Source of the DNA: Escherichia coli
GTDB lineage: Bacteria; Pseudomonadota; Gammaproteobacteria; Enterobacterales; Enterobacteriaceae
Length of the DNA: 64,000 nt
Assembly: GCF_013315695.1 (NCBI RefSeq)
Contig: NZ_CP054353.1
Reading direction: 5' to 3' (one strand)
The stretch's first letter is position 1. The number at the start of each line of letters is the position of its first letter. Made by a program: the position numbers and the translations under genes. The notes under the pieces were generated by a model. The model was not told the origin of the DNA. It saw only the letters and a list, made by a program, of their open reading frames with translations, and made no database searches. Below, in pieces: positions 29,120 through 30,545 of this stretch.

Positions 29120-30545
29120 TAATGCCGATCAGTTAAGGATCAGTTGACCGATCCAGTGGCTGTGTAAGAATCCGGAAACGCTCACTTGTTTCCGGATTTT
29201 TTTATGCACATTGGACAGGCTCTTGATCTGGTATCCCGTTACGATTCTCTGCGTAACCCACTGACTTCTCTGGGGGATTACCTCGACCCCGAACTCATCT
29301 CTCGTTGCCTTGCCGAATCAGGTACTGTAACGCTACGCAAGCGCCGTCTTCCCCTCGAAATGATGGTCTGGTGTATTGTTGGCATGGCGCTTGAGCGTAA
29401 AGAACCTCTTCACCAGATTGTGAATCGCCTGGACATCATGCTGCCGGGCAATCGCCCCTTCGTTGCCCCCAGTGCCGTTATTCAGGCCCGCCAGCGCCTG
29501 GGAAGTGAGGCTGTCCGCCGCGTGTTCACGAAAACAGCGCAGCTCTGGCATAACGCCACGCCGCATCCGCACTGGTGCGGCCTGACCCTGCTGGCCATCG
29601 ATGGTGTGTTCTGGCGCACACCGGATACACCAGAGAACGATGCAGCCTTCCCCCGCCAGACACATGCCGGGAACCCGGCGCTCTACCCGCAGGTCAAAAT
29701 GGTCTGCCAGATGGAACTGACCAGCCATCTGCTGACGGCTGCAGCCTTCGGCACGATGAAGAACAGCGAAAATGAGCTTGCTGAGCAACTTATAGAACAA
29801 ACCGGCGATAACACTCTGACGTTAATGGATAAAGGTTATTACTCACTGGGACTGTTAAATGCCTGGAGCCTGGCGGGAGAACACCGCCACTGGATGATAC
29901 CTCTCAGAAAGGGAGCGCAATATGAAGAGATCAGAAAACTGGGTAAAGGCGATCATCTGGTGAAGCTGAAAACCAGCCCGCAGGCACGAAAAAAGTGGCC
30001 GGGACTGGGAAATGAAGTGACAGCCCGCCTGCTGACCGTGACGCGCAAAGGAAAAGTCTGCCATCTGCTGACGTCGATGACGGACGCCATGCGCTTCCCC
30101 GGAGGAGAAATGGCGGATCTGTACAGTCATCGCTGGGAAATCGAACTGGGATACAGGGAGATAAAACAGACGATGCAACTGAGCAGGCTGACGCTGAGAA
30201 GTAAAAAACCGGAGCTTGTGGAGCAAGAGCTGTGGGGTGTCTTACTGGCTTATAATCTGGTGAGATATCAGATGATTAAAATGGCGGAACATCTGAAAGG
30301 TTACTGGCCGAATCAACTGAGTTTCTCAGAATCATGCGGAATGGTGATGAGAATGCTGATGACATTGCAGGGCGCTTCACCGGGACGTATACCGGAGCTG
30401 ATGCGCGATCTTGCAAGTATGGGACAACTTGTGAAATTACCGACAAGAAGGGAAAGGGCCTTCCCGAGAGTGGTAAAGGAGAGGCCCTGGAAATACCCCA
30501 CAGCCCCGAAAAAGAGCCAGTCAGTTGCTTAACTGACTGGCATTA
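29120..30545 (+). mobile_element. IS4 copy B (1426 bp) with 13 bp target-site duplication CCCCTTACCGGAG
   Basis: Same termini as copy A; 13 bp direct repeat at 29107-29119 and 30546-30558. Confidence 0.93.
29186..30532 (+). CDS. IS4 transposase
   Basis: 448 aa ORF identical to the copy at 20071-21417. Confidence 0.92.

Follow-up and report, generated by a model that had tools for sequence, protein, structure and literature searches.

A complete copy of IS4, here called copy B, lies within the 64-kb stretch of E. coli DNA that we analysed (the window) and splits a gene which is, judged by its homology, an ECSE_1600-family (yneO/ydeK-locus) autotransporter of type Va. As one part of what we regard as the best explanation of the locus as a whole, copy B almost certainly represents a simple transposition with target duplication into this site, in which a canonical E. 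coli IS4 would have entered the passenger-coding part of the gene after codon 534, in the orientation opposite to that of the gene. The autotransporter locus is a pseudogene with three independent lesions, namely the IS4 insertion, a deletion that fuses the gene to hipA fragments and an IS1 upstream.

IS4 copy B and its target site

Copy B occupies 29120..30545 on the plus strand and is a complete element of 1426 bp, as judged by its length and inverted repeats and by a 100% match over all 1426 bp to features annotated as 'IS4-like element IS4 family transposase' in many E. coli genomes. In K-12 the E. coli IS4 is known as insG. The imperfect terminal inverted repeats of 18 bp (29120-29137 and 30528-30545) read TAATGCCGATCAGTTAAG at the left end and CTTAACTGACTGGCATTA at the right end, the reverse complement of the latter being TAATGCCAGTCAGTTAAG, and the two agree at 16 of 18 positions. 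Between them a single ORF (29204..30532, plus strand) encodes a transposase of 442 aa from an ATG, recognised from its translation together with matches to NCBIfam NF033592 (IS4 family transposase; E = 8.7e-91, 304.5 bits against a cutoff of 115) and to the Pfam families DDE_Tnp_1 (8.7e-32) and Nterm_IS4 (3e-33). It is a DDE transposase in which the Y(2)R(3)E(6)K motif is present as a 15-residue stretch.

The IS4 subgroup has been delimited by a length of 1400-1650 bp, ends of the form -AATR--------WTW----, the YREK motif and a direct repeat of 10-13 bp (De Palmenaer et al., PMC2266710, Table 1). Copy B measures 1426 bp between its repeats, has AATG at positions 2-5 and TTA at positions 14-16 of its left end, encodes its YREK-type DDE transposase in one ORF and is bordered by an exact repeat of 13 bp, and thus lies within the subgroup on every one of these counts.

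The repeat, CCCCTTACCGGAG, is present as a left copy at 29107..29119 and as an exactly matching right copy at 30546..30558, each abutting the element. A repeat longer than 13 bp was considered and rejected as the neighbouring bases differ on both sides, and the sequence-only reading, which had proposed a simple insertion with a 13-bp duplication and staked this on a repeat of no fewer than 11 bp, is upheld with a repeat of exactly 13 bp. CCCCTTACCGGAG has just two occurrences in the window even when one mismatch is allowed, where 0.04 would be expected by chance. In an intact allele of the autotransporter gene it is single-copy (L018, 3590-3602) and coincides with the place where the two flanking segments of the window overlap. 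When IS4 and one copy of the repeat (1439 bp) are removed in silico, the resulting 400-bp site matches, at 100% identity, the uninterrupted site that many E. coli genomes carry naturally.

These observations also bear on whether the flanking 13-mers might be coincidental or pre-existing, with IS4 having arrived by homologous recombination or gene conversion rather than by transposition. A second copy of IS4 in the window, copy A, shows that the IS4 copies of this genome do recombine. However, the intact allele has the 13-mer once only, as do the empty sites, which are 100% identical to the excised one, the repeat abuts both termini of the element exactly, its chance expectation is low even with a mismatch and both flanks are contiguous parts of one gene, and we give arrival by recombination a practically negligible probability. 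No evidence contradicting the insertion model was found. From what is known of the IS4 family, transposition of copy B would have been of the cut-and-paste type, with the DDE transposase cleaving the target with a 13-bp stagger, the ends of the element being joined to the target and subsequent gap repair producing the duplication.

The length of the repeat is within the normal range of IS4, as seven other IS4 sites in the loci that we retrieved have repeats of 11, 12 or 13 bp.

The autotransporter gene and its decay

The 5' fragment of the autotransporter gene (30543..32147, minus strand) comprises 534 codons counted from MNRIYR and includes an ESPR signal peptide, as seen from the ORF list and Pfam; the mechanically called ORF is longer (30543-32195, minus strand, 550 aa). 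Its translation ends GGNASGKG, and the stop codon after it, TAA, is supplied by the three terminal bases of IS4. On the other side of the element the middle passenger fragment (27185..29119, minus strand) extends to residue 1175 of 1806 and is in frame with the 5' fragment once the 1439 bp are gone, as indicated by the excision, by the NF011422 profile and by alignment to the intact allele. This frame picks up at SGKGIVNIS, and the distal ORF called within it (27151-29046, minus strand, 631 aa) has an artificial TTG start.

In-silico removal of the 1439 bp yields one ORF of 1201 aa running from 32195 to 27151, with its stop at 27151-27153, or of 1185 aa if counted from the likely true start MNRIYR at 32147. 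The arithmetic of the frames agrees, (32195-29046) mod 3 and 1439 mod 3 both being 2, and the proposal that the ORFs of 550 aa and 631 aa share a frame after excision is confirmed by re-translation. The rejoined ORF matches the NCBIfam profile NF011422 (ECSE_1600 family autotransporter) with 2634.5 bits against a cutoff of 2335, covering profile positions 1-1177 of 1806 only, and its residues 1-47 match Pfam ESPR (54 bits). The gene's neighbours in related genomes are lsrK on one side and the ydeQRST fimbrial cluster on the other, and this is the position of the yneO/ydeK autotransporter pseudogene of K-12. A search of the literature on yneO/ydeK turned up no reports on this autotransporter in particular.

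CFSAN061771, 2014C-3075 and AR_0077 are among the genomes in which the gene is intact, with a length of 5421 bp (1806 aa), and the intact protein has an ESPR signal peptide (residues 1-48), a PATR repeat (1253-1281), an AC_1 autochaperone (1332-1438) and an Autotransporter beta-domain (PF03797; 1525-1784). The excised ORF is 98.3% identical to the intact allele over residues 1-1175, and the Pfam search found neither PF03797 nor AC_1 in it. The reading frame in the window is broken twice, by IS4 at codon 534 and by the loss of everything after codon 1175, and the gene there, a remnant of its family, has no beta-barrel translocator and no autochaperone.

The truncation is the work of a second lesion. 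DNA homology to the autotransporter gene ends at 27185, and adjacent to it lies a deletion scar of 144 bp (27041..27184), identified by its hipA matches and by comparison with the intact allele L018, which consists of two hipA fragments (matches at 27047-27099 and 27100-27185) fused to codon 1175. Here 2086 bp of the intact allele, comprising codons 1176-1806 and 189 bp downstream, have been replaced by the 144 bp, and beyond residue 1175 the rejoined ORF has ten unrelated codons (NEVSQRRAHL) and then a stop. The missing 3' third was sought elsewhere in the window using SMS-3-5 and intact alleles, with no match. At the same scar (27041-27185) hipB has been lost, as has the greater part of hipA. 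MS 21-1, OZ546925 and OZ546911 have the internal hipA scar in common with the window but not the fusion to the autotransporter gene, and in MS 21-1 a different deletion took out the IS4 target region.

The third lesion is an IS1 of 768 bp (32459..33226) with a 9-bp duplication, AAAACTCTT, situated in the stretch between lsrK and the autotransporter gene, the start codon of which is 312 bp downstream. It is annotated as IS1A in MSB1_4I, one of two close relatives described below, and is absent from the other, AF3. In both relatives lsrK is annotated as frameshifted.

The expectation that excision restores the frame thus holds as far as the frame is concerned, with a single ORF being recovered, but the gene stays dead, as the product still ends at residue 1175 of 1806. 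From the predicted protein, precise excision of IS4 could not yield more than a barrel-less passenger of 1175 residues, with no surface display. Because the excised product lacks the barrel, we exclude the reading of IS4 as a reversible off-switch in which the 13-bp repeats would allow precise excision by slippage and with it the return of a functional adhesin, and leave it only a very slim chance. In its favour, loss of the 1439 bp does give one frame and exactly the natural allele at the site. Against it, residues 1176-1806, which include the autochaperone and the beta-barrel needed for translocation across the outer membrane, would still be missing, IS1 separates the gene from its upstream region, and we found no genome that combines the hipA-fusion deletion with an unoccupied IS4 site, the full fusion junction being confined to two genomes that also bear the IS4. 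As the locus is dead for three independent reasons, neither an adhesin phenotype nor phase-variable reversion is to be expected of it, and we suggest that a single ECSE_1600-family autotransporter pseudogene be annotated here, with the ORFs at 27151-29046 and 30543-32195 as its pieces, in place of two separate genes.

The IS4 insertion and the hipA-fusion deletion are present in exactly the same two complete genomes and in the window, so that the autotransporter gene may have been intact when IS4 landed. The same locus has decayed in different ways in SMS-3-5, ECCNB12-2, CE10, MS 21-1 and M172-1.

Lineage, age and the rearrangement at copy A

We examined how the insertion is distributed among isolates, a check that had been proposed with the sequence-only reading, by searching 5426 complete E. 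coli genomes with an IS4-occupied junction made up of 200 bp of flank and 200 bp of IS4. The occupied junction was present in two of them, MSB1_4I (Australia, rectal swab) and AF3 (UK, blood culture), with the same IS4 and the same repeat in these two only, whereas the empty site (covered at 80% or more) was found in 3983. The full hipA-autotransporter fusion junction is likewise restricted among complete genomes to MSB1_4I and AF3. Taken on its sequence, the window is a third member of the MSB1_4I/AF3 lineage. It has the upstream IS1 and a recombinant copy A in common with MSB1_4I and differs from it left of 24150; from AF3 it differs by the IS1, by an inversion and by a deletion at 26126-26465. 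The shared junctions of IS4, IS1 and the deletion serve well as clonal markers, which tie the window to the lineage of MSB1_4I and AF3 and help to order the IS-mediated rearrangements.

MSB1_4I and AF3 have IS4 at 18-19 places per genome, compared with a median of 1 in genomes having any, from which we infer a lineage-specific expansion of IS4 to about 18 copies, with the copy B insertion as part of it. The intact ORF and ends of copy B, together with the roughly 18 copies per genome in this lineage, suggest transposition activity.

The two IS4 copies of the window had been noted to encode identical transposases, and a nucleotide comparison extends this to the whole element, with no differences over 1426 nt and hence identical 442-aa products. 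The conclusion drawn from it, that transposition was recent, fares less well; the identity is real but is weak evidence of age, and it makes a poor clock because 100% identical IS4 copies are found in many other E. coli genomes. A very recent insertion private to one strain would agree with the identity of the two copies (1426/1426) and with the rarity of the occupied site among complete genomes. We nevertheless consider it unlikely, given that the insertion and its repeat are shared with MSB1_4I and AF3, isolates from Australia and the UK, that these isolates and the window differ by an IS1 insertion, an inversion mediated by IS4, a rearrangement associated with IS2 and a deletion, that copy B of AF3 has one base substitution and that identical copies of IS4 occur in many other E. 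coli genomes. The copy B insertion predates the divergence of the three isolates represented by the window, MSB1_4I and AF3, which differ by later rearrangements.

Copy A (20005..21430, plus strand) is identical in nucleotide sequence to copy B and has the same orientation. No target duplication surrounds it, as the sequence before it, ending gccgcccttcgggg, and the sequence after it, starting gtccccagggagac, form no direct repeat; a fumA side is joined here to a ydeQ side. AF3 retains both parental simple insertions, one between fumA and fumC with a 13-bp repeat, CCGCCCTTCGGGG, and one within ydeQ with a 12-bp repeat, GTCCCCAGGGAG, and the earlier assignment of a rearrangement junction at 20005 is borne out by them. 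The two parental copies in AF3 are inverted with respect to one another and lie about 129 kb apart (L008, 5501-6926; L002, 10264-11689). What the window and MSB1_4I have instead is a hybrid, bordered by the fumA flank to its left and by the ydeQ flank to its right. Homologous recombination between such an inverted pair, which the expansion of IS4 in the lineage would have supplied, would invert about 129 kb and produce the copy A junction. The inversion interval so deduced includes, in AF3, fumC, tus and the autotransporter/lsr locus.

In a self-BLAST of the window the alignment of the two copies ran 12 bp into their left flanks, and we considered whether copy A shares the target of copy B. 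This was rejected as the left flank of copy A is CCGCCCTTCGGGG, the fumA-side target also present in AF3, and the 12-bp resemblance is a likeness between target sites. That target lies, in AF3, within a GC-rich inverted repeat that comes immediately after fumA and has a T-run behind it, and we read this structure as the rho-independent terminator of fumA.

We compared eight independent IS4 targets, taken from the IS4 flanks in L001, L002 and L008-L013 and from the window (29087-29119 and 30546-30578), five of the eight having been chosen because their flanks aligned by BLAST to the copy B site, so that the sample is biased. Their duplicated core is rich in G+C and 11-13 bp long, examples being CCCCTTACCGGAG, CCGCCCTTCGGGG, GTCCCCAGGGAG and CACCTTCGGAG, with an A/T-rich arm (..AAATAT/AATAT..) before the core and a T-run within 3-8 bp after it, a pattern consistent with the arm specificity described for the IS4 subgroup (PMC2266710). 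Tentatively, IS4 might pick a structured target made up of a G+C core of 11-13 bp (C/T-rich, then GGAG-like) between A/T arms, the stem of the fumA terminator included, although we think it rather doubtful. If it did, the sites of IS4 and the inversions that result from them would be partly predictable from sequence, an incremental advance as arm specificity has already been reported for the IS4 subgroup (PMC2266710).

Other IS-linked features were observed in the window. A second IS1 (13839-14606) has one mismatch to the other IS1 and no target duplication, its flanks being ggcgtgcg and ttcgtgatg; its neighbour in related genomes is a truncated porin gene of the uidC/OprD family, and this IS1 probably marks a further junction left by an IS-mediated deletion or rearrangement. 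In the region 22800-26465, which was compared with the two relatives, an IS2, annotated as such in them, splits a fimbrial usher gene. Left of the position corresponding to 24150, MSB1_4I has prophage integrase, excisionase and exonuclease genes, and this difference suggests an IS2-associated rearrangement. About 0.8 kb of usher and chaperone fragments is present in AF3 between the positions corresponding to 26126 and 26465 and is absent from both the window and MSB1_4I.

Comparison with known systems

Inversions arising by homologous recombination between inverted IS copies have been catalogued for E. coli (PMC5009759). Copy A resembles such cases in having the hybrid flanks of two parental copies that in AF3 are inverted and about 129 kb apart, and differs in that its reciprocal junction lies outside the window.

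In comparison with type Va autotransporters of the ECSE_1600 family, the gene in the window is alike in its position, its ESPR and its identity over residues 1-1175, and differs in being split by IS4 and in having lost the PATR, autochaperone and beta-barrel regions with residues 1176-1806. The copy B insertion is a case of ordinary gene decay caused by a well-known IS in a frequently decayed E. coli gene. When set against IS4 of E. coli, copy B is alike in its length of 1426 bp, its 18-bp inverted repeats starting TAATG, its 442-aa DDE transposase of the YREK type and the size of its duplication; the element itself shows no difference, and it is the insertion site, occupied in 2 of 5426 complete genomes, that is uncommon.
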